Source of the DNA: Rhizophagus irregularis
Lineage: Eukaryota
Length of the DNA stretch: 64,000 nt
Direction of reading: 5' to 3'
Assembly (NCBI RefSeq): GCF_026210795.1
Contig: NC_089432.1
Span: forward strand, 4,278,001 to 4,342,000
Shown here: in pieces, positions 2,651-56,727 of the stretch
How the letters are laid out: each line of letters begins with the position of its first letter
Position numbering within the stretch: position 1 is the stretch's first letter
The notes under the pieces: model-generated
Databases searched by the model: none
Told to the model about the DNA's origin: nothing
The model's input: the letters and a program-made list of their open reading frames with translations, nothing else
Translations under genes and position numbers: made by a program

Positions 2651-5611
2651 ATGGACCAATGTATTGAAGGTAGCTGAAATATTTTTTTATTTATAAACAA
2701 TTCATGTTTAATATCTTACATAATTCAACTAATTACATTCTTAATTTAAAAAACTAGATTGTAAGTAGTATATATAATTTACAGTAAATACTTTTATATT
2801 ATCTTTATATTTAACTAATTAATAATTAATAATACTACAGGGTGTAAGTTATATGATATCTATATTTGTATTATTTATATAATTTAAACTAACTAATTTC
2901 TTTATTTAAAAAATTATTTTGTAATTTATTTTAGTTGGTAAGCCATCATAGTAATTTATTTATTTAATTATATCATTACTTATTGTTATAATATTTATAT
3001 ATAATTTAAACTATATAATTTCTTTATTTAAAAAATTATTTTGTAGATGGTAAGTTATTTATTTAATTCTATTATTACTTATTGTTATAATATTTATATA
3101 TAATTTAAACTAGTATCTAATCTCTTTATTTAAAAAATTATTAAATAATATAGCGTGTAAGTTATTTATTTAATTCTATTATTACTTATTGTTATAATAT
3201 TTACATATAATTTAAACTATCTAATTTCTTTATTTATTTAATAGAACGTAAGTAATAAATTATTTGTTTAATTCTATTATTACTTATTATTATAATATTT
3301 ACATATAATTTAAACTGTCTAATTTTTTTATTTAGGGAGTAAGTTATTTATTTAATTCTATTATTACTCATTGTTATAATATTTACATATAATTTAAACT
3401 ATCTAATTTCTTTATTTAAAAAATTATTAAATAATATAGTTCGTAAGTTATTTATTTAATTCTATTATTACTTATTGTTATAATATTTACATATGATTTA
3501 AACTATCTAATTTCTTTATTTAAAAAATTATTTCGTAGAAGGTAAGTTATTTATTTAATTCTATTATTACTTAATGTTATAATATTTACATATGATTTAA
3601 ACTATCTAATTTCTCTATTTAAAAAGTTATTAAATAATATAGTGTGTAAGTTATTTATTTAATTCTATTATTACTTAATGTTATAATATTTACATATGAT
3701 TTAAACTATCTAATTTCTTTATTTAGGGAGTAAGTTATTTATTTAATTCTATTATTACTTATTGTTATAATATTTACATATAATTTAAACTATCTAATTT
3801 CTTTATTTAGGGAGTAAGTTATTTATTTAATTCTATTATTACTTATTGTTATAATATTTACATATAATTTAAACTATCTAATTTCTTTATTTAGGGAGTA
3901 AGTTATTTATTTAATTCTATTATTACTTATTGTTATAATATTTACATATAATTTAAACTATCTAATTTCTTTATTTAAAAAATTATTTCGTAGATGGTAA
4001 GTTATTTATTTAATCCTATTATTACTTATTGTTATAATATTTACATATAATTTAAACTATCTTTAAAAAATTATTAAGATCTAGCTTGTAAGTATCTCTA
4101 TTGTTATATATTTATATAATATTTATTTGTTAATTGAATTCTTTTATTTAAAAAATTCTGTTACTTTAGTTGGTAAGTTGTAAATTATAGGTTATTATGT
4201 ATTTATCCAAAAACTAAGACTTATATTACATTAAATTCCTATTTAAATTTTAGAGTAAGTAATAATTTATTTTAGTGTAAATTATAATACAATCTATAAT
4301 ATAATTTTAATTATTTAAATTTATAGATTTGGGGGAAGTGGAAACACAATTATAGATGATTTTATTCTTGAAAAAAAATTAAGATGGATTCCTTATAACA
4401 AATTTAAAAATGTTGAATATCTTAATGAAGGAGGATTTGGTACTATATACAAAGCTATTTGGTTAAAGAATTATGGAGGTGAAGAAGAAGTAATTCTTAA
4501 ATGTCACAAGAATTTAAATGAAAATTTAAATGAATTTTTGAAAGAAGTATGATAGATTGATAGTATATTATTTTTTATTTTTATAATTTATATTAATAAA
4601 TTATTATTAATTTTTGTAGTGGGACTATCATAAGAATTGTTTAAATTCATCATATGAAATTGTAAATTTTTATGGATTTACAAAAGATCCAAAGATTTCA
4701 AAATATATAGTAGTAATGGCTTATGCAAATAATGGTAATTTAAGAGAAAATTTAACAAGAATAGTCAAAAATAATTGGAATCAAAAATTATATATGTTGT
4801 ACAGAATTATTGCTGGACTTAGTAAGATACATGAAAAAAATCTTATTCATTGTGATTTTCATGATGGTAATATTTTAAATCATAATGAGAGTGTACTTTA
4901 TATTAGTGATTTAGGATTATGTCAACCTGTAAAATCGGTTTTGGAAAAGTATGATATTTATGGTGTTATACCATTTATGGCTCCTGAAGTTTTAAGAGGT
5001 AAATCTTATACTCCAGCTAGTGATATATATAGTTTTTCTATGATTATGTGGGAACTTACATCTGGAGTACCACCATTTAATAATAGAGCACATGACATTC
5101 AACTAAGTTTAAGTATTTGTAAAGATGGTGAACGTCCTGAAATTATTGAAAATGCTCCACAATGTTATGTAGATTTAATGAAAAGATGTTGGAATGAAGA
5201 TCCATTAAAAAGACCATCTTCTAAAGAAGTATTAGAAATTATTAATAAATGGATTTTCCGTTCTAATGAAGTCAATGATGAATTAAAAAGCAACATTATG
5301 GAATTTATAAATGCACCAATTAGGCAGTATAACAATCTTGTTACTCAACCTCATCCTAAAGCATGTTATACAAGTCGCTTACTTAATTTTACTAGTAAAA
5401 AATTGAATGAAATTATTGAAAGTGAAGATTCACAAGCTAATGTAGAAGCAAATGAAATACTAGTAAGTGAAAATTTGAATGATTATATAATTAAGGATTT
5501 GGGGTCATTAGGTATGTATTATGATATATAAAAAATTAATCTTGCAAATTATTTATGTGAAATTAATTTTATTTAATATTTAATTTAGATATTAAAACAG
5601 ATGAAAATTAA
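2651..5611 (+). CDS. TKL-family protein kinase with a micro-exon-encoded N-terminus
   Basis: Predicted exons: 2651-2669 (MDQCIE), 16 three-nt exons and a one-nt exon (2758-4254), 4327-4546 (FGGSGNTIIDDFI..WIPY..EGGFGTIYKA..VILK), 4620-5511 (HCDFHDGNIL, SDLG, APE, SDIYSFSMIMWE), and 5589-5611 ending in TAA. The kinase core has no stops. Confidence 0.8.
2670..4326 (+). repeat. Tandem array of intron plus micro-exon units (18 introns, 72-109 nt)
   Basis: Unit consensus GTAAGTTATTTATTTAATTCTATTATTACTTATTGTTATAATATTTACATATAATTTAAACTATCTAATTTCTTTATT(..)TAG. Sixteen junctions read AG-NNN-GTAAG and one reads AG-A-GTAAG. The core copies at 3050-4084 are nearly identical. Confidence 0.9.
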
Positions 5612-7215
5612 CTAGTAGTCATTGTTTGTTTTTAAAAAAAAATTATATATTTTTTTTTAAGCGATATTTGATATTATACATTTAAAAGAAATTGTTCTTT
5701 ATTTTATTCTTTTTAAATTTATTTAAATGCTAAGACTAGAGTCTAGTAAAATATTTTACAAAATTCTTAGTTTGTAATTTAAATAATTCCTTTTTTTTTC
5801 TACTTATAATTATTTAAACACTAAGACTAGAGTGGTAAATATTTTACAAGTTTCTTAGTTTGTAATTTAAATAAATCTTTTTTTTATAACTTTTCCAATT
5901 ATTGAGATATAAATTATCAAAATAATAATATAAACCCATTTCCAATGATAATGTATAGGCCAATAGCCTAACACTAGCCATTTTCTGTTTGATCACATGT
6001 TTGTACATAGCTCTGCATTAGTGTTTCGATACGTTTCTGGGTTCAAGTCTAGGGTGTCCAGGATTTGACGTCGTGATGGCCCAAAAATCAGGCGTGAAAA
6101 ATCACAAAAATCGTGAAAATCGTGATCCATAATTTCAGCCAGAATTACCATAATTCTGGCCAGAATTAACATAATTCCGATTATAAAAAACTTTTTAATA
6201 ATTTGATATTCTATACAAATTTTATTTATTTATTTACAATTAAGTAATAAATTTATACATTTATATTATTCATAAATCATCAATTCATTACTATAATCAT
6301 CATTATTACTAAGATTAAAATAAAGAAAATTAAGCATTTGAATATTTTCTTCTTTAAGCGCTACTCTTCTATCTGATAAAATGCTTTTATAACTAGAAAA
6401 ACTACGTTCAATATCTACACCAGATACTGGCAACCATATATATATTAAAGCCAGTGAACTAAGTTCTGGTAATATATGTCTTTTACCTCGCCAATACAAA
6501 TCCAAATCATCAAACTCTTCAATAGATTCATTAAGTCCACAGTAAATAGCCCATTCTTGTATTAAAGTATCAGTAGGAACATCAGCAAGTTTTAAACAGG
6601 CGTATAAAGTGTTGAAAAATGCCATGTGTTGCTCAACGCCAAAAAATGTAGGGAAACGAACCCTTTGTCAATCAACGCCACCTAAAAACGTTGAAAAACG
6701 CGTAAAACAACACCAATTTAAATGTAAAACAACATACAGTAAAACAACGATAGTTTAAAAACGTGTATACAATGTATAAAAACGCGTATATTGATATTAA
6801 AAATGCGTAAAGCAATGATTTTATTGTATATTATTAATATATATATTATATAAAATATGTAAATTTATTTATGATAAAATACGTATCAATTCAAATACAT
6901 TATCTAATGTAAATTCCTCTTGTTATAATTGGATTGCCGCAGATTTTTAAGCGATCAACGTACTAAATTTCCGTTGACATAGCGCCCCTGGTGACACAAC
7001 CATAACAAGGTGGGAATGTGATTTGTACAACTAAATCACTTGATTGATCTTTCTACAAACTGAAACGCGATAATTATATTAATATTATTAACTGAATGAT
7101 ATTGCTAAATTGCAATTGATACATAATATAATGCATACTAGAATAATACATATAGATTAGAAGACAAAAAATGACAACAACGAATAATATCAAATTATAA
7201 AAGTCACGTGAACTT

Positions 7216-24596: not shown

Positions 24597-25586
24597 GCTA
24601 TGCAAGGATTTTTAGTGATTACCAAGATTTAAACTTTCAACAAAAGGTAAGACTTTTTATGACCGTCACGCGCCAAGCCCATTTATTATATCAGAAGCAT
24701 GTATCACACATCAAAAAGAACTTTTTAGACAAATCCAATGTTTCACTCTGAAGAAAATCTCATGCAGTCCTTTAGAAAAAAAAACTATTCCATTCAATGC
24801 CATCCATTCTAACGAGTTATTTAACAAATGGAACAAATCAACAAAATTATTACCTCGTTATAATATGGAATAAGTTACGATGTCACCTATAAAGCCAATT
24901 GTCATAGAACACTCATTACATGCCCTAAAAGTTCGAAAAATTTTCAAATTTCAAAATTAATTGATTTTTGAGTTAAAGAAATGTGAAGGGTATTTCAAGC
25001 CACAAAAACCAAATCAAATTACTGAATTGAAGAGTCAATTTTTAGCCGCTAAATGCAAAACTTATATATTTTATGAGTTGCTATCTTTTCTTTATCTATA
25101 TTCCATTTCAAATTCAACACTTACACCATCAGAGTATAATTTTTACGTCCCTTATTTTTTTTTGCTAACAACACACGTAACCAAATACTAGAAAGGTCGA
25201 TCTTAAGCAAATCGATCGTATATACTTTCAACCATAAATTTGTCCACTTTGCCCTTAACACCCAAACCTATTATCAAATACATTATTCCTACTCCAACAT
25301 TAATAATATTCATACAATTTATAGTAAATTTTTTTTTCAAATTTCATTATGACGTTATTATATGAATGAAATTACTGCGTATTGCGGTACAAACATCGAC
25401 TGATTGACTTTTTGTTTGGTAACAGGGTAATACAGGTAGTACCAAATCACTCTAATCACTCCTGTACGCTTGTACAACTATCATCGGAGAAAAAAAAATT
25501 ATAAATAGGCAAACAATAAAACTTTCAACAATTTTTTTTTAAATTTTACTGTTAACTTATTAATCAATACATCCTATATTTTCAAA

Positions 25587-27866
25587 ATGCAAGATACCGA
25601 GAATACAAATGAATGGGTTAATTGGATTGAGGAAGTTGTTGATAAAGAATATTTTAAATTTTATGAATACAAACAATTTAATAATATTCAATATATTGGT
25701 ACCGGAGGTTTTGGAAAAGTATATCGTGCAAATTATAAAAATTCAGGAAAACTATTTGCGTTAAAATCTTTTTTAAATCTTAATAACATCACAGTGAAAG
25801 AGATTGTTCGTGAGGTAATTTAATATAAAATACATTCTTTTTCGTTTATGATTTTGTTATAATATAACATTTTAAAAAATTTGAATTTTATTTTAGTTAA
25901 AAATTCAACGTGAAGTTGATTTTCATGATAAAATTATTCGTTGCTACAGAATGACAAAACTTGAGTCAGGTATCATTAAGTTACCTTAATAAATAGTATA
26001 ATATTCTTTTAATCGCAAAATCGCCAAATATATTTTATTAATTATTCCTTTTAATCATTAGAAGATTATAATAATTATTGGGTAGTAATGGAATACGCCG
26101 ATGGTGGTAGTCTTCGAAACTATTTAAAGAAAAACTTTAAAAAGCTTACTTGGGACGACAAATATAGTATGGCATACCAGTTATCTTGTGCCATATTATG
26201 TTTACATAACGAAGGAATAGTGCATCGTGATTAGTATTATTTGTCCGTTTAATAATAATATTATGCTTGTATTACCTACTTATTTGAATTTATATATGTT
26301 TCTTTAATAGCACTCCTGTAATATACTAGTCTGTAATAACACAATCAAGTTAGCAGATTTTGGATTACCAAAAAGAATTGGAGCATCCAATTTTCAATCT
26401 AAATTATTTGGGATGGTCCCTTATGTCGACCCAAAAAGCTTTAGTGGACAAAGTAATAATAATAACCAATCCACACAATTGTACTTATTAAATGAAAATA
26501 GTGATATTTACAGTGTTGGAGTATTATTATGGGAGATATCTAGCGGACAACCTCCTTTTTATGTTGAAGGTGAACAATATGAAATTGGCTTAGCTTTAGA
26601 AATTTCACAAGGTCTTAGAGAAACTGTTGTTCCTAATACTCCTGAAGAATATGTAAAAATATATACTAGTGAGTAAAATTTTAGATTTTATATTTTTATA
26701 ATTTGAATATTATTTTAACTAGTTTTGAATTACATTTATTTCTAGAATGTTGGGATGGAGAACCAGATAATCGTCCAAAAATATATCAAGTTGTTGATTG
26801 GCTAAATGCAATAATTACAAAATCAGATGTAATCATAGAAAACCAACAAATTTCAAATGAACGAGAACTTAATGAGGCTTCTATAAGTAATAATGATTCA
26901 GTATTACAAGTAGAATTATCTCAACTTATTCAAAATTTTGATAAAATAAATATAAAAGAAATTGATCCTATGATAATATTAAGTAAACAAAAAAATTTTC
27001 TAATTGAAGATTTTAACATTATAATTGATGTAATAAATGATTTTATTATTAAATTAAATAATAAAGGGCTAGAATGGAAAGCAGAAAAGCAGAAAACTAT
27101 TGAATATTTTAATAATCATAATTTAGATTCACAAGAAATTTATAATTGGTTGTTAGACAATCAAAATAGTTTAAATCCTATTTTTATTCTTGGATATTTT
27201 AATTATTATGGAATTGTAACAAGTGAAGATAATGAGAAAGCATTTAATTTGTTCATTAATGCGTCAGAAAAAAATCATATATTAGCACAATACTTTGTTG
27301 GTGAATGTTATTTTTATGGAAATGGGACTATAAAAAATGAAAAATTAGCTTACAAATACTATAAGAAAGTAGCTAATAAAAATTTATCAAGTGGACAATT
27401 AAATATTGGTTGTTGTTATGATTATGGAATGGGTATTAAAAAAGATTTAAAAGAGGCATTTTATTGGTATGAAAAAGCTGCAAATAATGGAAATATAACG
27501 GCAATGTACAATCTCGGCCTTAATTATAAAGACGAAAAAGGCGTTAAAAAAGATTATGATAAAGCTTTTGAGTTATTTAAACAATCAGCTAAAGGAGGGT
27601 ATTTGGGTGGAATAATGATGTTAGGATATTGTTATAATAAGGGTATTGGAACTAAAATTGATAAGCAAAAAGCATTTGAATTTTATCAAAATGCTGCAAA
27701 TTTAGGACATAATGGTGCACAAAATAATCTTGCTATAATGTTTCAATTAGGAGATGGGATTGCAAAAGATATAGATAAAGCGATTTATTGGTATAAAAAG
27801 TCTGCTGAACAAGGATATGAATTAGCAAACAATAATTTAATAAAGCTTCAGAATAGTTTATTTTAA
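25587..27866 (+). pseudogene. TKL kinase plus Sel1-repeat protein, probably inactivated
   Basis: GTGGFGKVY, FALK, DFG, and Sel1 repeats (YWYEKAA, AQNNLA). At the catalytic-loop exon end it reads CAT CGT GAT TAG (26232-26234), where the paralogs have HxDL|gt, giving a stop or frameshift. Confidence 0.8.
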
Positions 27867-31725: not shown

Positions 31726-33334
31726 CCGGGCGTAGTTGCTTCTGATATTGCTAGTTAAACATAAGTAGTATTTGACATTAATGGATTTGGATGTGTATCA
31801 TCTTGAAGTTTGTTTCTTGAACCATTTTCGTTTGAATGATTTTCATTTTTTGATGATTTTACTTCCATTTTTAAATATTCAATGTAACTGACTTTACCTT
31901 TTTCAATGAATTCAATTAAACTAAAAAAAAGTAATTACACCTTTTCAAGTTTTTAATCTTTTCATCCTTTTTGTCTAATTCCTTTTCCAGCTTTCTATTT
32001 TCATGAAACCTTTTATAATAAAAAAAAGTGTAAAATAAAAATCCATTATCCAATTATAAAAAATAACACAAATTATTTTTTTGAGAATGAGTTTTTGAGT
32101 CGCTATAATATCATTTTTTATTTCGAGGTAAAATTTTTTTAACCATGATTTTTAGGTGTAAAATGAAAAATATCTAGTTTGAGGAATAACTTGTCAACAA
32201 AACTTTTATCCCTGATTATATTAAAAGAAATTAAATGTTTTACATTAAAATAAAATTAATAAGTTGTAAAGAGAATTCAAGTATTATTAAAAGAAAATCA
32301 GGATGGTAGTCAACTTTACAGTATAGTCTAACATAAATTGTCTTATAACATGTAACAGTTGTAACACCTCTTTTATAAGATTGTGTAAAAGATGTAATTT
32401 AACTTATTAAAATTCTGAAATGATATTGGTTAGTGATTTTGACGGACTGATATACAGTCTAATTATACCTTTTATGTCAAATATTTTTTTTTTACTGATT
32501 TTATTGATGCGCGGTTTAAATTGTTATATAGTAACAAAATAATATGTAACGCGTCTCCACAAGTGATGACTCATAATTAATAAAGATTGAAGTTTAACTA
32601 CTTTAACTTATTAAAATATTGGTTGGTGATTTATATACAGTTTAATTATACCTTTTATGTGCAGTATAAACAATAGACTATTTTTTACTATTTTTCCATT
32701 TTTGCAAGTCCGCAAGAGTTGATTACAATATTAGTATAATTTATACTTTTTATATGAAAAGCTTGTGCAACAAAAAAAAATATTTATATAGTCCTTTTTT
32801 CTTTTTTTTTTATTACACATCCTCTTATTCCAAACATCCTTCTATTCCACACATACACATCCACTTATTTTTTTCCTCCTTTAGAGAAAGGTAACAAACT
32901 TTTTTCGCGCAAATAAATATTTTTGTTTTTTTTTTACGCGAAAAAAATAATATTCTTCCTTTCTATTATTCTTGAGAAAGGTAACAAACTTTTTTTTGCG
33001 CAAATAAATATTCTTATTTTTTTATTGCGCAAAGAAATAAATATTCTTTCCGCAAATATTTTTATTTTCATATATGTATTTTTTTTATCCATTTAAATAA
33101 ATATTTTTTTTTTTTACACAAATAATTATCTAGGGTATACCATTTATTCCAAGATCAGGACAACAAATGTTGAACAATAAATAAGTATTACTCCTAATAT
33201 GATCAACACAGAGATAAAGTCTAGAAAGGTGAGAAACGTTAGACTAGACTAACCTACTCAAGAAGTCAACCAAAGGATAACATCTCCAAATCATTGTCAT
33301 CAAGACCCAGGTTCTATAACAAAATCAACTGGAA

Positions 33335-34468
33335 TTTATTTATCACATTTAGTACATTTGGTGAGTTATTGTGTTTAAATTTAAAAAGTTTGGGCTTTAA
33401 TTGCAATGAAGGCTTTTTTACGATTTAGTTCATGGGTCTGCTCACGTATGTATATGTCTAAGGTTTTCCAAACTTGCTTAGGCTTATTTGTCGGGATTCT
33501 TTGTGAGTCTAGATGAAATCTGGTATATGTGCCTGAGTAAGCGTGAATGAGCATTCTGATATCAGCCTAGTAATTCAATAACTCATTTATCCGAGTGATC
33601 ATAGGATAACCTTTCTCTTTAATCTAGATTATTATTTTCCTTGCGCAAGAAATCGGATTTAATTTAATTTATCACATGTGGTACATTTGGTGAGTTGTTG
33701 TGTTTAAATTTAAAAAGTTTGGGCTTTAATTGCAATGAAGGCTTTTTTACGATTTAGTTCATGGGTCTGCTCACGTATGTATATGTCTAAGGTTTTCCAA
33801 ACTTGCTTATGCTTATTTGTCGGGATTCTTTGTGAGTCTAGATGAAATCTGGTATATGTGCCTGAGTAAGCGTGAATGAGCGTTCTGATATCAGCCTAGT
33901 AATTTAATAACTCATTTATCCGAGTGATCATAGGATAACCTTTCTCTTTAATCTAGATTATTATTCTCCTTGCGCAAGAAATCGGATTTAATTTAATTTA
34001 TCACATGTGGTACATTTGGTGAGTTGTTGTGTTTAAATTTAAAAAATTTGGGCTTTAATTGCAATGAAGGCTTTTTTACGATTCAGTTCATGGGTCTGCT
34101 CACGTATGTATATGTCTAAGGTTTTCCAAATTTGCTTATGCTTATTTGTCGGGATTCTTTGTGAGTCTAGATGAAATCTGGTATATGTGCCTGAGTAAGC
34201 GTGGATGAGCGTTCTGATATCAGCCTAGTAATTCAACAACTCATTTATCTGAGTGATCATAGGATAACCTTTCTCTTTATTTCTAGGTTATTATCATCAA
34301 GATCCAGGTTTTCTGTATTTATCAATTCTATTGATATATTTTTCTAATATTAATTTTATTATCAAGACCAAGGTCTCCTTACACAAGAAATCCATAACAA
34401 AATCAACGAATTTATTTATCACATTTGGTACATTTGGTGAGTTATTTTGTTTAAATTTAAAAAGTTTG
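33335..34468. repeat. 329-bp tandem repeat, about 3 copies plus a partial fourth start
   Basis: The anchor CATTTGGTGAGTT has its GG at 33360, 33689, 34018 and 34436. The copies are nearly identical. Confidence 0.95.
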
Positions 34469-36396: not shown

Positions 36397-38707
36397 TTAT
36401 AATTCAATGATTGAAGGAAAATTATCATGAATTACTATTTGATTATTTTGAAGTGATTTATATTTATCTTGTGCATCTAGATCTCCTTGTTTGGCAGATT
36501 TTTCATACCAATAAATTGCTTTACCTATATCTTTTGTAATTCCATTTCCTTCTTCATACATTAAAGCAAGATTATATTGTGCTATAACATCCCCTAAATT
36601 TGCAGCACTATGATATAATTCAAATGCTTTTTTCTTATCAATTTTAGTACCAATACCATTACTATAACAATATCCTAACATAATTATTCCATCTGAATAT
36701 CCTCCTTCAGCTGATTTATTATATAAATCAAAAGCTTTATTAAAATTTTTTTCAACAACAATTCCATTTTCATAAAATCTACTAAGATTATATATAGCTA
36801 TAATATTATCATTATTTGCAGCTTTTTCATACCAATAAAAAGCTTTTTGATAATCTATATCAACTCCTATTCCTTTTTCATAAAAATAACCCATTTCTAA
36901 TTGCCCACTTGAAAAATTTTCATTAGCCACTTTTTCATAATATTCAAATGCTAATTTTTCATTTTTTATAGTTCCATATCCATAACTATAACAATAACCA
37001 ACAAAAAGATGTGCTATTATATGATTTCTTTGTGATGCATTAATAAACAAGTTAAATGCTTTCTCATTATTTTCACTTGTTACAATTCCATAATAATTAA
37101 AATACCCAAGAATAAAAATAGAATTTGAACTATTTTGATTATCTAATAACCAACTATAAATTTCTTGAGAATTTATATTATAATTATTAAAATATTCAAT
37201 AACTTGTTGTTTTGCTTTAAGTCCTTTATTTTTTAATATAAAAATAAAATCATCTATTTCATCAATTATAATGTTAAAATCTTCAATTGGAAAATTTTCT
37301 TCTTTACTTAGTATTAAAATAGGATCAATTTCTTTTATATTTAATTTATCAAAATTTTGAATAGGTTGAAATAAATCTACTTGTAAATTTGAATTATTAG
37401 TACTTAAAGAAGCCTCATTAATTTCTTGTTCATTTAGTATTTGATCATTTTCTACTATTACATCTGTTTTTGTCATTATGGCATTAAGCCAATCAACCAC
37501 TTGATATATTGTTGGTCGATTATCAGGCTCATCATCCCAACATTCTAAAGAACCATATATAATTAAAGATTAATAAAAATAGTATTTAATTTAAGAATTT
37601 TAAATTTAAAATATTACTTACTGGTATAGATTTTGATATATTTTTCAGGAGTACCAGGAACAATAGTTTCTCTAAGACCTTGTGAAATTTCCAAAGCGAA
37701 ATCAATATCAAATTGTTTATCTTCATCATAAAAAGGAGGTCGCCCACTAGATATCTCCCATAATAATACGCCTAAACTATAAATATCACTTTTTTCATTC
37801 AATGAGCATATTTGTGTTGATTGATTGTTATTATTTCTTTGTCCACTAAAGCTTTTTGGATCAATATAAGGAACCATCCCAAATAATTTAGATTGAAAAT
37901 TGGATGATTCACCAATTCTTTTTGATAATCCGAAATCCGCTAATTTGATTGCATTATTATGGATCAATATATTATAGGAGTGCTATTAAAGAAACATATG
38001 TATATTCAAATGAGTAATACAGGTATAATATTATTATTAATCAAATAATGTTAAATTAATTACCAAATCACGATGCACAATTCCCGTGTTATGTAAGTGC
38101 GATACAGCACTAGATAACTGATATGCCAAATTATACTTGTCATCCCACGTAAGCCTATTAAAATTTTCTTTCAAATAACTTCGAAGAGTACCACTATTAG
38201 CATATTCCATTACTAGCTGGTAATTATTATGATTTTCTAATTAATAAAAAAAAAATAATTAATAAAATGAACTTTGTGAAATTTTTCAATCAAAAGAATA
38301 GTTATATTTATTAAGGTGACTTTTATAAATACCTGACTCAAGTTTTGTTATTCCATAGCAACGAATAATATTATCATGAAAATCAACTTCGTGTTGAATT
38401 TTTAACTGAATAAAATATAAAAATATTTGAAATAAATATATTAGATAAAATTTATAGACGAAAAAAAATGTATTATACATTAAAATACCTCACGAACGAT
38501 TTCTTTCATGGTGATATTATCAAGACTAAAAAAAGATTTTAACGCAAATTGCTTTTCTGAATTTTTCCAATTTGCACGAAATACTTTTCCGTAACCTCCA
38601 GTACCAATATGTTGAATATTATCAAATTCTTTATATTCATATGATTTAAAATATTCTTTATCCACTGATTCCTCAATCCAATTAACCCATTCATTTGTAT
38701 CTTGCAT
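36397..38707 (-). CDS. TKL kinase plus Sel1-repeat protein, apparently intact, 5 exons
   Basis: GTGGYGKVF, FALK, GIVHRDL|HSYNIL, LADFG, SDIYSLGVLLWE, CWD, and multiple Sel1 repeats. Canonical GT-AG introns. Confidence 0.9.
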
Positions 38708-39923
38708 ATTGATATTATTGAATGTATTGAATAATGTTAACAGTAAAGTTTAAAAAAATGGAAAGTAAAAAAAATCGGTAAAGTTTAACTTGTACGCCTA
38801 TTTTATATATTTTTTCTCCGATGTTAGTCGTACAGGCATTTAGTACTACCTCAAAACAAACAAAAAAGTCAATCAGCCATGGTACGCAGCACGCAGTAAT
38901 TTCATGCACAGTATATTTCATGACGTCATCATTAAAATTATCATCAAATGTCGTACTGTAAAAAGAATTTTTAAATTTCTTATGCAAGTCGGTTGGATCT
39001 TTGCAGGCGTCTTCTGTTAGTGAGATTCAACATTCAGTCTTGCTTGTACAGTAGATGTTTCAGTGCTATACCGTAGGATGAAGTACCAATTGGTTGCTAT
39101 CTATTCAAAAATTATGAGACGCGGATCAGTAATGCACATATCGGAAGAAAAAGATAAATAGAATCTCCGGCTATGAACAAATCTATACTAACATATTATT
39201 TGTCCCAATAATCGATAGAATAAATATAGTCGCAAAATCACTGTATATTTATATGAGGCATACAGTGTCAGAAATAACCCCGCCGAAAATTTATGTTGCT
39301 TGCATTCCGTGATGCTGTACGAAAAAAAAATGGACAATATCATTATTTTGATTGGCACTCTCATGTGACATTGTGACATGTGGCTGATTTTCGATTGATA
39401 AATTTTTTTTCGTAATTTCCTTGACACATCGCTGACTCAGTTCGTAGTATTACTGACTCACAGTTCGTAGTAATTAGTCAACAACTGTTTATGGAAACAT
39501 ATATATATGTGATAAATAATCAAAATGTCGAACTATTCTTCGCTATTTCGAGTACTTTCGCTTTAAAAATTTTCTTATTTGTTGAGATTCAAAAAAAGTG
39601 AAAAAGATAATCTATACAAATTCCATTTTTTTTCTTTTAATACCGACCGAGTCTATAATTGAAGAAAGGATGTATTCTCGGATAATTTTTGCTGCAAAAA
39701 TTTGATTAAATTAATTTACTTTTTTTATCATCTTATTTTAAGTTCATTAATATGAATAATTTCAATCGAATAGATGCATCCCAGGTACAAACTAAATTCG
39801 AGGAAAATTCCCTACCTGTTAGATCTAACGTTGTACCCATAAGGTCTTTTACTTGTGTTATACTGAAAAATTACTTTTTTGACCCTCGTTTTAATTCTCG
39901 ATTTTTGCGATTGCAGATATACC

Positions 39924-42900
39924 ATGGCATATTATCTCATTCTAGGTGAAGTTCCCGCTAAAAGGAAACTTGATTTTGTTAAGTTCGATTTCTCAGAACG
40001 CGTCATGATACTCAGGAATGCTATCTATGATAAGAAGAAGAACACCTTTACCAATAAAAATATTGACGAAAACGACCTCATATTATGGAAAGTCGATATT
40101 CCTTTCGATGGTGAAAATGATAAGCTGACGATGCTTGATGAAAAGTTTGATACAATTAACATTGAACAAGATCTTGAAGGAAAGGAAATGTTACCAGGAG
40201 ACGAAATTTCAAAACATTTAAAAAACTTTGATAAACCAACATCCTTAATTCACATAATCGTGCAACCGCCCCAGCCCGCCACCACTGGTAAGTGTCTCCC
40301 AATGGTTTACCTCTCGAACAAGAAATTCGCAGTAACAAAATATCGAGTTTGTTCTGATCTCTTTTTTTCGCGTTAAAGTAGGTCCCTCTCATCAAGGCGT
40401 TCCACAAGGTACGGTATCTCTAGTTAAATTTCCTGTGTTGTCTTAGTCTTTGTATTCTGGCCCGCCATTATTGATACATATAGGTTACTTGCACCGTATC
40501 TATTTGTTAATACACTGTGCTTTCTTATTGTTCACAAAACATAGTGACGTCGATCGAAGATGCCATGAAAAAGATTTTGGAGGGAATTCATGAACAAATG
40601 GACGTAGACAATGTAGACAATAATAAGCCCAAGCCCATGGCTCTAAAACAACGTGACCTTAAGCAAGCTATTGATGTGATTGACAGGAATTTTTGTAATT
40701 CCTTAGATAAACAAGAAGCTATAAAAAAAGAAACTCCCACGGCAAAGACAAACTATCGAATCCTTTTATGCGGTGGGGCACCTGGCATAGGTAACTTTCA
40801 TACATTCTCTTGTATGTTTTTACAGCAGATAAAGCGGTTTTAGCCTTCTAATTAACAAATTCAAACTATAATTCACTAGGAAAGACACGTTATGGAGTTG
40901 AATTGTTTAATTGTCTCGACAAAGAATGGAAGATATCAAAAGGCCAAAAGCCTTACATGCTTTACATGCTTTTTGATTTCACTAATGGTTATGCTTTAGA
41001 TGAGTATGAAATCCAGGGGGATATTAAAATTGCATCAGAAATCATTCTTGGATTGCGGTTGGCGTACCACTATTTGGTCCACAAAAAATATGTGATGAGT
41101 TTTACAGTGTTCCGTACGAAATCCAATGAATATAAGCAATTTTTCAGATTGAGTAATGTCCTTTTATACATCCACAACCTTGAACATGAAAGTCTGATTC
41201 AACGTGGCAAGCATCTTTTCATTTTTCTTCAAATTGATGAATTTTAGCTAATTTTCAAAGAGCGAAATGAAGGAGAAAAATTATTTAAGCAGTTAATGTA
41301 TATTCTTGGGCATCATATGGCCGGAGAAATTCCTGAAGTATTTGTGCAGACTCTACTTTCAGGTACAGCACCACAGGATGCAATACGAGCAATGGAACCT
41401 ACAATGTATTCTATTGAACCTCTTAACCTTCCACTGTTATTCTTGGAGTCACGTCTTGATATTATGAGAGATTTTGCAACAAATCACGATGTTTCTGATT
41501 GTGTGTGGGTACCAAAAGTTTAGATACATCAATTACTTCTTGATACAGGTGGTCTTCCACGTGCTTTGGAGTATCTTTTTACAGAATTTTTCGGGCAAGG
41601 TTTTACAAGTGTTAAGGAATTTTTTGAAGAACTTGAAACAAAGACTCCATCAAGAATTTACAGCAAAATCGTATACAAGCTTGATGATGCATATAACATC
41701 AGCACTTATGCTAGTGATCATAAAAAGCTTATATATGAGATTGTTTATAGAAATATTATGGAAATTGAATCAAAAATGTCTGATGAACTACAAGATGGTC
41801 GCTTTATTATAAAATTGGAACATTTGGAGCGTGACAGGCACTTGATACTAAGGAAATTGGAAGTAACACGTAAAGTTCTAATTGATATACCATACTTCTT
41901 TATGTATATTTACGTTGATGAACTTGGAATTTTCTCAAACAAATTAGACAGAGCATTTTTACCTGATTCGGATTGGTCATGGGAGGATTTTGAAATATTT
42001 ATTGCGGATTTTATAGCATCAAAAATCCGTATGATTCATGTTCTGGAAAAAACCAAATCATTAAAACTTGGGGATTTCTTTCATGGTGCACAGGGTAGTG
42101 ATGTTACACTGAACCTGTTGATCAATTTCGAACCTGTTCAAATCTATAAATTAAAACATCAATTTCCATGCCTGAACCTTTCCGCAAAAGAGGGAAATTA
42201 TGATTTAAATAAGCTAGAGCCGGGTTACATTATGATCAATGGTTATTCGGCACCATTTGCAGATGTCTTTTTTTTAGTAAATAACCCCGAACCTATTCTT
42301 ATTGCTATTCAATGCAGAAAAAGAAAAAAATCTCTTGATTTGAGAACAATTAAAGATGAACATGAGAAAAATTCGAATATTTCTGAAAAAATGGAAGAAA
42401 AGGCCGAAAAAATCAGAGAAAATGCTAAAGTAAAAGGCAGAGAGATGAAAGAAAAATTGCAAAAAGAGGCAGAGCAATATACAAAACTTGCAGATTTTTT
42501 GAGCAAATATCGTATTATCACAATTTTTATTACAACTCAGCGTTTCAGGGAGGAATTGGAATCTCTTCCTGATGATTGTATTTTGATTCATCAAGAAAAC
42601 TTTGACATTTTCTTCGGGCCTGTATTTTCCTCTCGTACCAAGCTTGTAATGACCAGAGATTCAAATCCAAATCTGAGTACTGCAAGTGAATTGACGTCAA
42701 AGTTTAAAGCAATTAAGAAAGATATAGGAGAGAAAATTGAAGAAGCTAGAAAAAGAAAGACTTTTAGGTCACATAAAGAGTTCTGTAAAGATTTTCCAGA
42801 ATTGGCTGAAGATGATGAGATCCGAAATAATTTTGTTTACTACCCATACCCTCCACATATAGAATCCTTTGAACATCCAAACAAGAGAACACGTGTTTAA
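39924..42900 (+). pseudogene. Crinkler (CRN) family protein: ubiquitin-like N-terminal domain, P-loop NTPase, putative restriction-endonuclease-fold C-terminus
   Basis: LILWKVDIP..IHIIVQPP header, short GPSHQGVPQ exon, Walker A GGAPGIG|KT split by an intron, Walker B IFLQIDEF, and PFADVF..IAIQCRK. In-frame TAG at 41245-41247 and 41521-41523. The exact start codon is uncertain. Confidence 0.85.
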
Positions 42901-52358: not shown

Positions 52359-55300
52359 ATGGAAGGAAGTTCAAGTCAGGTAAATTATTATTTTAAACAA
52401 TATTAAAATTTAATTAATTGCATATCAATAAAACTAACTTTATATAATAATAGAGTGGAAATTCTTCTACTAATACTACTTCTGGTAGCTTAGAAAATAA
52501 TGACCCTGTTTCATATAAAACGATTTTGCATAAAAATATTCTCAATAATCATATCCTTCTCAAATTAGAAGAGGATGGTTTCACTACGCCAGATGACAAA
52601 GTGGAAGAACTTTTAAAAAATCTAACTAAACCAAGTTATTTGTATGCACTTAAATTACTTTTTGAAAATTTACAAAATGAATTTTCATCTCAATCATTAA
52701 TAAATTCGTTAGAAGCTCTAATTGATTCCACATCTTTTAATTATTATTCCAAAGAAAGCATGGCTAGACTAGAATTACATTTAAGGACTTGGGTGACAGT
52801 CTTAGAAAGAATTTGTTTTTCACCAATAGTACTTAGTAAAGTACTTCGAGATAAAGTTTATAATTCTTTAGCAAATTTTGCAGAAATTCACCGTAAAACA
52901 ACTCAAGTTATCGAAATAGGACTTGATAAAAATTTTAGACCAAATTTCAATCAATTCAATCAACAAAACAATAATCAAGATGAACAAATTATTAAAAAAC
53001 GTAATTATAATATTGATTTTTTATTAATCCATTTGCGAGATACTCTTCATAGTCTACGTGATGATGAAACTTGGTTTCAAGAAATTATACGAAGGACTAA
53101 AGATTTTCTTAAAGCTGCATTAAATATTACACCAGGAATTTTATCAATAACAGGAGTTTCTCTTCCAAATGATAATTGTTCAATCTTATCATTGCTTAAT
53201 CAAGTACGTCAGAGTTTAAGTTTTAAATATCCAGTAGCATCTTATTATGTAGATTGGAGAATTATGTTAATAATTCAACATAATCTTTTCATTTGGTCTG
53301 AAAGTGAAAAGATTATAAGTAAAAAATTTGGAGAATTAGTATTAATGGAATATATTTGGAGCTTTTTGGAAAGAGAATGGGTTAATGCTGTGGACAAATC
53401 TATTTTAGATTCTCAAACAAAATTTGATGAAGTATCAAATAAAGTCACTAAAGCTTTGAAAACCCTATAAAAAAAAATTTCTTTAAAATGTACTTAAAAT
53501 ATACTTATATATTTTTAAAATATATCTAAAATATACTTAACATTTTAAAATATACTTAAAATATACTTAAAATTGCAATTTTAAGTATATTTAAAGTGTA
53601 AAATTTTGTACTTAAATTATACTTAAATTATATTTAAATTGCAATTAAGTATATTTTAAATATAATTTAAGTATAAAATTTCATACTCTAAATATACTTA
53701 AAATTGCAATTTTAAGTATATTTTAAGTACATTTAAAAATTTTAAGTACATTTTAGATATATTTTAAAATATATAAGTACATTTTAAGTATATTTTAAAG
53801 AATTTTTTTTTTCATAGGGAAAATACTGGAGGCTTTTTAAATGAACTTGCTGGAAATGAACCTATAGCACTACCACATAGTTTGTGGTTTGGAATATTAG
53901 ATCTTGCACAAAATCTTATCCAAAGATCATCTCGAATAGCAACATATGGTCTTTGTTATTATTTAGCAATTGAATCACTTAATAAAGCACCAAGCAGTTT
54001 TATTCAATTTAAATCTATTGAATTATTATTAAATTTATATAATATTGATAATAAAATGTTTTCAATGATTGAAATTGATTTTGATCAATACACGCAAAAA
54101 TCAAGTGAAAATAATTTGGAAGATTCTTTAGAAAAATTTCAAAATTTATTAACTTTTGTTAAAGAGAAATATCTTGAAGATTTAAAAATTCTAAGTAATA
54201 ATGCTGGAAAAGGAAAAGAGGGAAAAGGAATAAACTTAAATCAAAATTCATATTTAAAGAAAGAACAAATATCAAATTCTAACATTTTAGATGTTATAGC
54301 AGATGAAATTACTTGTCCAATTAATGTGAACCAACGGATCAATTATGTATTTTAAAATGCCAACATATATTAGCATTAAGCAATTTAAAAAAATTGAAGC
54401 AAAAAATATGTCCTAATTGTCGAGAAAAAATTGAAGATAATGATATTAGATATTTACCACAAAATTCAATTTATAAAAATTTATATACGAAATTTTTTGA
54501 ATCTGGACATATTTTACCTTCAATTGAATTAGAAAATTCTGATCAATTATATGACAGTGATGAATCAGATAATTCGGAAGTTGAACTCATATTAACTAAA
54601 AAAAAGAAATTTATGAATTCAATTATTAAGTTAAATTCAAAAATATCATCCCCAATACTTTCAAGAATCACAAAAAAACAACATCCAACATACCAAAATA
54701 TTATAAAAGAAATAAATGAAAAAAATTATGAAAAAGCTGAATCTTTATGCAAAGAATTTATAAATTTTTTTCCTAAAAGTTATTCTTTAAGATGTATTTT
54801 AGCGTATGTTTATAGATGTCTTAACAATTACGAACAAGCACACTTATTTTTAAATGAGGCTATTGATTTAAATCCCAAAAGACCAGTTGCTTATTTTATT
54901 TGTGGAGAAATATTTTTTAGACAAAATGATTATGATGAAGTAATATATAATTTAAAAAAGTCAATAAATTATAAAGCAAAAATAAATAACTCATATATAT
55001 TACTCGGAAATAGTTACTTATTACGTAATTTTCTTGGTGATTATGCAATAGCTATAGGAAATTATAATATTGCATTAAAAAATGATCCAAATAATTATTT
55101 ATGCCTTAAAAATTGTGCATACGCTTATGAAAAAGAAGGAGATTATTTAAGTACATTAAATTTATTAGATAAATTATTAAATATCAATAAGGAGGATTCT
55201 TTGATTTTATGTTATTATGGAGAAATTTTATATAATATGACACAATATAGAAAAGCTATATCATACTTTACAAAAGCTTATACTATAGATCCAGAAAACA

Positions 55301-56727
55301 TTCATAACTTGAATAGGAGAGCTATTACATACTATATTATTAAGGAATATGATAAAGTATTATCAGATCTTGATAAAATTATACAATTAGATCCATTAAA
55401 TAGTTTAGCATATTATCTTAAATGTTTAACGTATTATACAAAGAATGATAATAACAATGCTAAAGTATCATTTAAAAAGTATGCAGAATTATTGAATTCT
55501 GATAATATTTTAGCAAAGATTCAGTTATTACATCTAGAATACTTACTAAATAAAAATAGTTCTAAAGATTTAAACGATATATTAAAAAAAAATCGATCAA
55601 ATTTTTGATTTTAAAGATTATAATCTTTTTGATGGAGATAAATTATATAAATTACTATATTTTATTAGGTACAAAATTTATATTGAATTAAAAGAGTATA
55701 GTAAAGCAAGACTAGCTTTAAATGATACATCGTACTATGAATTTGAATCTATTAGTTATTTTATACAAGATCATCCAGATTTTTGGTCATATTTATATGA
55801 AGATTGTGAAATTAACAAAAACGATTTTACCGAATTTGGAATTGTCGATGAATTTAGTAAATTTATGTATAAAGGTAAGAAAATATTTAAATTATTTATT
55901 ATTTTCTATTAGTTAAGTTAATGATAATTAATATCTTAAACTCATTAGAAAAACGAGTATATTTTATTTCAAATCTTACAAATTTGAATAGTGAACTTTG
56001 TCAATTTCAAGAAAGTGATATAAGCAGGTAAGGTTTACTCATAATAATACTTTAAGTCAAATTGTCTTAAATACAAATAATCATAATTATAAAATTAAAG
56101 TTTATCAAGGCTGGTAATGTCTTCTAAAAATGAAAATCTTCATTTGGTTTTGCCTAAACTAAAAAATATGTATGATTATAATTATCTCATTTGTAAAATG
56201 AATGTTAAAAAAATATTATCCAAGGATTGCTTTATAAAATTTATATTCAATGACGTAAGTTAATTAATTAAAATCTCTATTGTTTTGTTTAATTTTAAAT
56301 TAATATTAACTTAATCATAGAATTATCAAAAAGATCATATGTTAAAACATAAAGATGTATCAAAACTTGAGGGGTTAGGTTGGATAGAATATCAGACTTC
56401 AATAATTGGCCTACCTTATGATGCTCAACTTTCAATTGAAATAAATTCTATTGAAATGGTTTGTTCCTATTTACTTATTCAGATTAATTTCCTTTTTAGA
56501 ACAAAATATAATAATATTTTTTATTCACATAGCAAATAGAATATATTCGATTAGAAGATATTCCATACACAATAACTCACATTACCAACATAAATTTAAT
56601 GGGTTATTTGTTTCCAGTTTATCGTAAATTTTTCTCAAATGTTCCAGAAACTTTCAAAGACAAGTATTTTTCAAGAAAAGAAATGGAAAATTTGCTTGAT
56701 TTAAAAGATATCCTTGACAGCTTATAA
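52359..56727 (+). pseudogene. Large helical plus RING/U-box-like plus TPR protein, disrupted
   Basis: Start exon MEGSSSQ. The RING motif TCPI..LCILKCQH..CPNCRE has a 1-bp frameshift near 54325. TPRs (AIDLNP, AYTIDPEN, IIQLDPLN). MITE inserted at 53463-53819 and another frameshift near 55590. Confidence 0.8.
53463..53819. mobile_element. Foldback MITE, 357 bp, inserted in a coding exon
   Basis: Termini CCCTAT(A/G)AAAAAAA..CTTTAAAAT in inverted orientation. The body is TACTTAAAA / TTTTAAGTA repeats forming a near-complete palindrome. It is flanked by AAAA on both sides, and removal restores the frame (LKNTGGFLNE). Confidence 0.9.

Follow-up and report, generated by a model that had tools for sequence, protein, structure and literature searches.

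Exons of a single nucleotide have been described in both plants and fungi. The plant cases are Arabidopsis APC11 (PMC4674806) and the plant gene VPS55 (PMC8831610), and the fungal cases are Fusarium CYP621A (PMC12940212) and a set of 13 such exons in Coprinopsis cinerea (PMC12230235). To handle an exon this small, PMC4674806 proposes that the two introns are removed one after the other, and it cites downstream-first removal around the 9-nt exon of potato invertase. A second kind of minute exon is known from the truffle Tuber melanosporum, in which the nank (NACHT-ankyrin) genes carry arrays of codon-sized micro-exons that are reported to undergo alternative splicing (Iotti et al. 2012, as cited in PMC4986451). 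Rhizophagus irregularis, in turn, has an expanded repertoire of PF07714 kinases, according to two reports (PMC6123716, PMC10234402).

The locus described here, a kinase gene of R. irregularis, has features of both systems. The reading that best accounts for the evidence, with a probability of roughly 0.85, is that nucleotide A4254 is a spliceosomal one-base exon that closes a chain of three-base exons, as it does in the RNA of paralogues, and that splicing there likely proceeds in two steps, with the downstream intron removed first.

Layout of the gene

The gene lies in the window, the whole 64-kb stretch of DNA that was analysed, which is AT-rich fungal DNA. Its parts are as follows.

2651..2669, + strand: coding part of the start exon, MDQCIE, 19 nt, ending in phase 1; outside RNA read coverage
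2758..4172, + strand: chain of 16 three-nt exons between introns of 80-109 nt
2758, 2841, 2935, 3047, 3154, 3245, 3336, 3440, 3539, 3643, 3727, 3811, 3895, 3994, 4085, 4170, + strand: starts of the three-nt exons
3154..3247, + strand: exons CGT and AAC, which when joined give an in-frame TAA at codon 12; the frame is open if either is skipped
4173..4253, + strand: upstream intron, 81 nt, GTAAGT..TTTTAG; likely the last one out
4254..4254, + strand: one-nt exon A, middle base of the Glu codon in F-E-F-G-(G/K)-S-G-N, assigned from sequence, paralogue RNA and conservation in metagenome loci L001, L002 and L003
4255..4326, + strand: downstream intron, 72 nt, GTAAGT..TATAG
4259..4260, + strand: cryptic GT that would make a 5-nt exon (the 'SK' gene models); no RNA joint from this GT among those listed
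4327..4546, + strand: kinase N-lobe exon, with SGN..IDDFI, WIPY, Gly-loop EGGFG, VILK lysine and FLKE glutamate
4354..4355, + strand: alternative AG, in frame without the A; unconserved, and in RNA a minor route at most
4620..5511, + strand: main kinase exon, PF07714 E 5.5e-35, with the non-RD catalytic loop HCDFHDGN, DLG and APE
5589..5611, + strand: predicted short last coding exon, DIKTDEN and stop, based on the C-termini of models P0122 and P0123; its joint is not among the RNA joints listed

As predicted from the DNA, the gene would consist of the ATG exon 2651-2669, sixteen 3-nt exons, A4254, exons 4327-4546 and 4620-5511, and then probably 5589-5611. The joint from 4546 to 4620 is carried by 48 RNA reads. 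Every GTAAG within 2761-4173 has a pyrimidine-AG exactly 3 bases ahead of it, and the GTAAG at 4255 has one 1 base ahead. Paralogue models begin in a comparable manner, with MDQCIG (P0065), MGQCIC (P0045) and MGQYIG (P0017).

The role of the single base is evident from the reading frame. The 19-nt ATG exon ends in phase 1 and the sixteen 3-nt exons keep that phase, whereas the kinase exon at 4327 starts A|TTT GGG, in phase 2, so that one extra base is needed; without A4254, the frame meets a stop early in that exon. The first-pass annotation had proposed A4254 as this frame-restoring exon, and its account of the sequence is accurate: TTTTAG-A-GTAAGT lies at 4248-4260, the flanking introns measure 81 nt (4173-4253) and 72 nt (4255-4326) and are both GT..AG, and the phase arithmetic is right. 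A frame check likewise confirmed its caveat that the acceptor at 4354-4355 keeps the frame if the A is left out, and the motif WTSGNDDID that it cited from the 48708 kinase is present there. Its statement that one-nt exons are very rare is correct as to rarity, but such exons are already known, fungi included (PMC12230235, PMC12940212).

The motif is nonetheless of little weight by itself. YAG-N-GTAAGT occurs once in the window against a mean of 0.68 in 100 dinucleotide shuffles, which is not significant window-wide, and inside the 154-nt gap 4173-4326 it arose in 55 of 20,000 shuffles. With 0.68 copies expected per window in AT-rich DNA, rarity of the motif was discarded as evidence for a one-nt exon. 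The array of three-nt exons greatly exceeds chance expectation, with 16 such exons against a mean of 1.45 and a maximum of 7 in shuffles. Since the motif alone is weak, the case for the one-nt exon rests on RNA and conservation.

RNA evidence for the one-nucleotide exon

The RNA comprises three poly-A runs that carry the same species label and derive from two samples of one study, with about a quarter of each run used. Reads were aligned twice, at 95% likeness and then at 85% likeness on 4045-4410. At 85%, 1,217 of 1,702 aligned reads have a loose 5ʹ part whose consensus ends in TTG-A ahead of ATTTGG. These include 373 reads with loose ends before 4327 (97, 144 and 132 per run; consensus end CCTTTTGA) and 844 with loose ends before 4336 (224, 271 and 349; consensus end CTTTTGAATTTGG). 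The stricter alignment gives 25 reads with loose ends before 4327, ending TTTTGA, and 37, 50 and 58 reads with loose ends before 4336, ending TTTTGAATTTGG. The mature consensus corresponds to the final pair of 3-nt exons in this copy (CTT, TTG) followed by A and the kinase exon. These lines are majority consensuses of mixed paralogues, and their agreement of 0.57-0.73 refers to 30 letters together, not to the A by itself; reads that lack the A but were clipped at 4336 would go unnoticed in them. The rows of loose ends considered are, at 85%, 18 of 32, the weakest of which has 6-10 reads per run, and, at 95%, those stronger than a further 103.

Use of the donor directly after the A is also seen in joined reads. 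At 95%, 8 reads join 4254 to 4327 across GT..AG. At 85%, the same joint is carried by 16 reads (GT..AG, no ambiguous letters, short side of 52-60 letters) and, clipped to 4336, by 16 further reads, giving a total of 32 in which the upstream intron is still held. Among the rows listed (18 of 32 at 85%), none shows a joint from 4258, and loose ends are absent at 4326, 4355 and 4356. Of the joints listed, none connects the 4173 donor to A4254 in a read that retains the downstream intron, and none of the reads listed combines the upstream intron with TTG, the A and the kinase exon.

These reads stem from paralogues or from another isolate, as AA at 4334-4335 and T at 4345 occur in almost all of them, and no more than 8 of 460 reads (85%) have any letter at 4335 but the A of the paralogues. 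In this copy, which has the GG allele, the same splicing would give TTG-A-ATTTGGGG. The cDNA junction TTG-A-ATTTGG, which the first-pass annotation had named as the decisive one, is found in poly-A reads of paralogues, with the donor right after the A in use. Exclusive use of the 4355 acceptor, which it had named as the refuting result, was not borne out, there being no loose end at that site among the rows listed. The one-nt exon is therefore real at the level of the family, and for this copy splicing of A4254 is likely.

Two other patterns were noted in the reads. In run X22, a loose end before 4324 is shared by 11 reads, which may come from a paralogue whose one-nt exon is G (F-R-F-G) or from a paralogue intron that was left unspliced. 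In a few RNA reads the alignment jumps back from 5511 to about 5390 across 7-10 intervening letters, probably as a result of a C-terminal duplication in paralogues.

Conservation and database models

Out of 426 pattern matches, a metagenome scan yielded 6 loci. L004 was dropped for want of upstream DNA, as were L005 and L006, two distant relatives in which there is no such exon; this leaves L001, L002 and L003 as the informative loci. All three have tag-A-gtaag ahead of the kinase exon, at protein identities of 89, 62 and 71%, respectively. The downstream introns of L002 and L003 (85 and 90 nt) are 66 and 64% identical to that of the window, yet the site is kept, and L002 keeps the TTG exon as well. 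Within L003:120-170, which contains a short internal duplication, the acceptor of the 3-nt exon ahead of the one-nt exon is damaged (AA in place of AG), so that L003 may be broken.

Protein databases hold many relatives of this gene. All 120 matches listed (the best 120 of 159) are Rhizophagus proteins, with at least 21 distinct locus tags of one assembly among them. The peptide of 4328-4546 is 100% identical to P0001 (GBC22470.2), an R. irregularis 'kinase-like domain-containing protein' whose N-terminus derives from intron 4085-4180. Among the same best 120 of 159, the N-terminal joins are SK or SN in 22 models, xE in 7, xR in 5, a partial start at the motif in 8 and other in 29, with 49 models lacking the motif. 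Judging from the protein models rather than from their DNA, SK and SN are what A plus GTAA would be expected to give, and xE what a donor after the A would give. The junction F-E-[FY]-G-x-S of the RNA was found in 0 of 181 fetched proteins. These observations suggest that public models of the kinase subfamily have wrong N-termini, either intron-derived or truncated.

Order of intron removal and competing explanations

RNA depth differs sharply between the two introns, at a peak of 14-21 in the upstream intron (bin 4227-4239) and 0-2 in the downstream intron (bin 4292-4304), compared with about 450-620 in the kinase exon. Since 32 reads keep the upstream intron while the A is joined to the kinase exon, the downstream intron is likely the first to leave. 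Early removal of the 72-nt intron and late removal of the 81-nt intron is the simplest reading of depths and joints and the likely one; the reads with the upstream intron kept may be an intermediate or a dead-end isoform.

In the proposed mechanism, the 72-nt intron is removed first, as found in paralogue RNA, and the A thereby comes to stand at the head of the large kinase exon. The 81-nt intron would then be removed as an ordinary intron in front of a normal-sized exon, a step suggested by the mature reads. Because the A would already be fused to a large exon, the one-base exon would not need to be recognised across its own length. The A takes the reading frame from phase 1, in which the micro-exon chain ends, to the phase 2 that the kinase exon requires, and gives the fixed F-E link. 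Ahead of this link, the chain encodes a short peptide that differs between paralogues and that probably sets the partner or signal specificity of the kinase. This copy has the same layout, with its kinase motifs intact, but would produce protein only when exon 3154 or 3245 is skipped.

The near-zero RNA depth of the downstream intron would also be expected if the expressed paralogues lacked the 72-nt intron in their DNA; the A would then be the plain first base of the kinase exon and the apparent intermediates would be unspliced pre-mRNA. There is precedent in APC11, for which PMC8831610 documents intron loss beside one-nt exons, and the RNA and DNA isolates are unmatched. However, run X1 covers both introns, with a summed depth of 2,391 downstream that matches 2,114 upstream, and 0 contigs of X1 carry the joined 4254-4327 form, although contigs show presence, not absence, and the X1 DNA and the RNA runs are not from matched isolates. 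The ordinary 4546-4620 joint is also absent from X1, so that X1 behaves as DNA. Furthermore, all three informative metagenome loci retain the downstream intron, and the SK-type (22) and xR-type (5) models imply its presence in many paralogues. Loss of the intron is thus improbable as an explanation.

Two other routes would dispense with the one-base exon altogether and are less probable again. If the A were unused, the last 3-nt exon would join the alternative acceptor at 4354-4355, a joint that is in frame and that the database models P0017 and P0065 make. Loose ends at 4355 or 4356 are absent from the 18 of 32 rows listed, though, and bin 4344-4356 reaches 91-94% of the depth of bin 4357-4369; moreover, the alternative AG is GG in L002 and L003, and each of its letters is changed in about 9% of reads. 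The 4356 acceptor was accordingly discarded as the main route on RNA and conservation, and the chance that it explains the locus is very small. Slightly smaller still is the chance of a 5-nt exon (4254-4258, donor 4259), with the 3-nt exons read as whole codons to give ...L-L-S-K-F-G. The SK or SN join in 22 of 120 database models (best 120 of 159) would fit such an exon, and the corresponding frame is stop-free in this copy and has two ATG exons within it. Yet this frame disagrees with the ATG exon at 2651, the RNA joints start at 4254 unambiguously with none listed from 4258, and the loose ends finish TTGA and not in the 5-nt form. As a main route, the 5-nt exon was discarded on RNA.

State of this copy

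With all exons included, this copy encodes MDQCIEDWFDA and then a stop, as exons 3154-3156 and 3245-3247 join to form TAA. This TAA at codon 12, which is absent from the first-pass annotation, implies that the copy is dead or in need of skipping. The claim that A4254 restores the frame is therefore supported for the family, whereas in this copy the restored frame is closed upstream unless 3154 or 3245 is skipped.

The two-step splicing of A4254 in the family is compatible with this locus alone being a recent pseudogene, in which a change in an unstable array created the TAA and no kinase is made. The chance of this falls somewhat below even. Independent skipping of 2-10% per exon would open only 4-17% of transcripts, and this copy's allele at 4335 is found in at most 8 of 460 reads. 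In addition, the protein has Asp, not Gly, at position 2 and is without the acidic stretch that follows the start of P0045 and P0065. On the other side, the kinase exons are open over 73 and 303 codons with all catalytic motifs present, all 18 introns up to 4326 keep GT..AG in this copy, and skipping of 3154 or 3245 opens the frame through the kinase; the RNA, moreover, may come from an isolate without this copy.

The three-nucleotide exon array and its peptide

The middle introns of the chain are tandem copies of one unit. In units with the same intron end, at least 4 changes fall on 9 exon positions versus 10 on 278 intron positions (Fisher p 0.0004; hand-counted, in a small sample), so that the exon bases change faster than the intron bases. 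The possibility that A4254 is itself a recently trimmed array unit was discarded, as its two flanking introns share no more than 53-69% identity with those of the array.

The chain peptide differs between paralogues. Hand translation of the 95% loose-end consensuses, which mix reads, gives DHHHHLVAFE and AYDHPFE, and that of one 85% consensus (7 reads in full agreement) gives VIVSDRRIFE; all are open and end in F-E. With exons in phase 1, the skipping of any one of them makes a new amino acid. In this copy, 32,376 of 65,536 exon subsets are open, and by computation skipping alone could yield about 15,000 distinct open peptides; TAA is also possible from 6 exon pairs and from 5 joins to the A exon. 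These properties raise the speculative and rather unlikely possibility that the chain is the diversity generator of a non-self-recognition kinase repertoire in arbuscular mycorrhizal fungi. Under this proposal, intron-exon cassettes would duplicate, the three exon bases would change fast, phase-1 skips would create new amino acids, and the invariant one-base exon would be the adapter through which a chain of any kind is connected to a non-RD kinase.

The kinase family

Within the two coding exons scanned, Pfam found kinase-type families only (PF07714 and PF00069), with PF07714 at 121 bits against a cut-off of 23.1. The catalytic motifs are present, namely the Gly-loop, Lys, Glu, HCD..N, DLG and APE. 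With HCD at the catalytic loop, the kinase is non-RD. In 120 homologues (best 120 of 159), the residue before the catalytic Asp is C in 66, H in 6 and R in 2, with the motif not found in 46; HCD is thus present in 66 of the 74 homologues with a readable motif, and the subfamily is mostly non-RD. An MGQ start, found in 2 of 120 models (best 120 of 159), resembles an N-myristoylation signal. Related Rhizophagus kinases, including the 48708 kinase of the window and P0167-P0181, have a Cys-rich segment at the position of the chain, before WTSGN.

Non-RD kinases have been linked more widely to immunity. The plant pattern receptors FLS2 and EFR have non-RD kinases (PMC6207691). By analogy, the chain-bearing fungal kinases might hypothetically serve in recognition.

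Other features in the window

No second copy of the kinase subfamily was found inside the 64-kb window. An 88-nt two-copy repeat lies at 5696-5885, downstream of the kinase, and by eye a similar stretch is present at about 51030, downstream of the 48708 kinase. Transposon fragments at 6266-6667 (- strand), 11199-12281 (+ strand) and 14918-15670 (- strand) contain a hAT dimerisation domain, a Plavaka transposase and DUF659. Two kinase genes have Sel1-repeat C-termini (25509-27866, + strand; 36397-39026, - strand), and the left end of the window holds a third kinase gene similar to this pair. A gene at 39867-42900 (+ strand) has a Crinkler domain (PF20147) at its N-terminus, and its C-terminal part gave no Pfam match. 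There is also a 329-nt tandem repeat at 33333-34294 (2.9 copies, 97% matches) and, at 54325-55608 (+ strand), the exon of a TPR-repeat protein with a Cys-rich segment ahead of it.

Comparison with known systems

As far as the available text of the published accounts goes, A4254 resembles the known one-nt exons in being a single base between AG and GT, in being critical for the frame and in having been missed by annotation. Like the one-nt exon of CYP621A, it is the middle base of a conserved codon (PMC12940212), and the depths and joints reported here fit the stepwise removal model put forward for APC11 (PMC4674806). However, the one-nt exons in those texts are described singly and in housekeeping or P450 genes. 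Here, the one-nt exon is preceded by a 3-nt exon that ends a chain of 16, it belongs to an expanded multi-copy family, and downstream-first intermediates are found in RNA.

With the nank genes, as they are presented in PMC4986451, the locus shares many consecutive 3-nt exons and membership of an expanded fungal gene family. The genes themselves differ, this one being a stand-alone non-RD tyrosine-kinase-like gene of Glomeromycota and nank an ascomycete NLR. NACHT and ankyrin domains were not found by Pfam in the two coding exons scanned, so this is a nank-like build and not a nank gene. The exons here are in phase 1, with codons split over two exons, such that skipping makes new codons, including stops, and a one-base exon closes the chain. 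A search of titles and abstracts, a scope that excludes most subscription journals and supplements, found no published account of a phase-1 chain with a one-base exon in a Glomeromycota kinase, and two genome papers are silent on it where they deal with exons and kinases.

One-nt exons and codon-sized exon arrays are therefore already known, and what is new is that a non-RD kinase family has a phase-1 array closed by a conserved one-base exon. The family offers a natural, multi-copy and RNA-supported case of the spliceosome handling a one-base exon beside a three-base exon, and it is in their hidden N-terminus that the paralogues of this model symbiont differ. If the chain peptide sets specificity, diversification by codon-sized exons would extend from the NLR genes of ascomycetes to the kinases of Glomeromycota.
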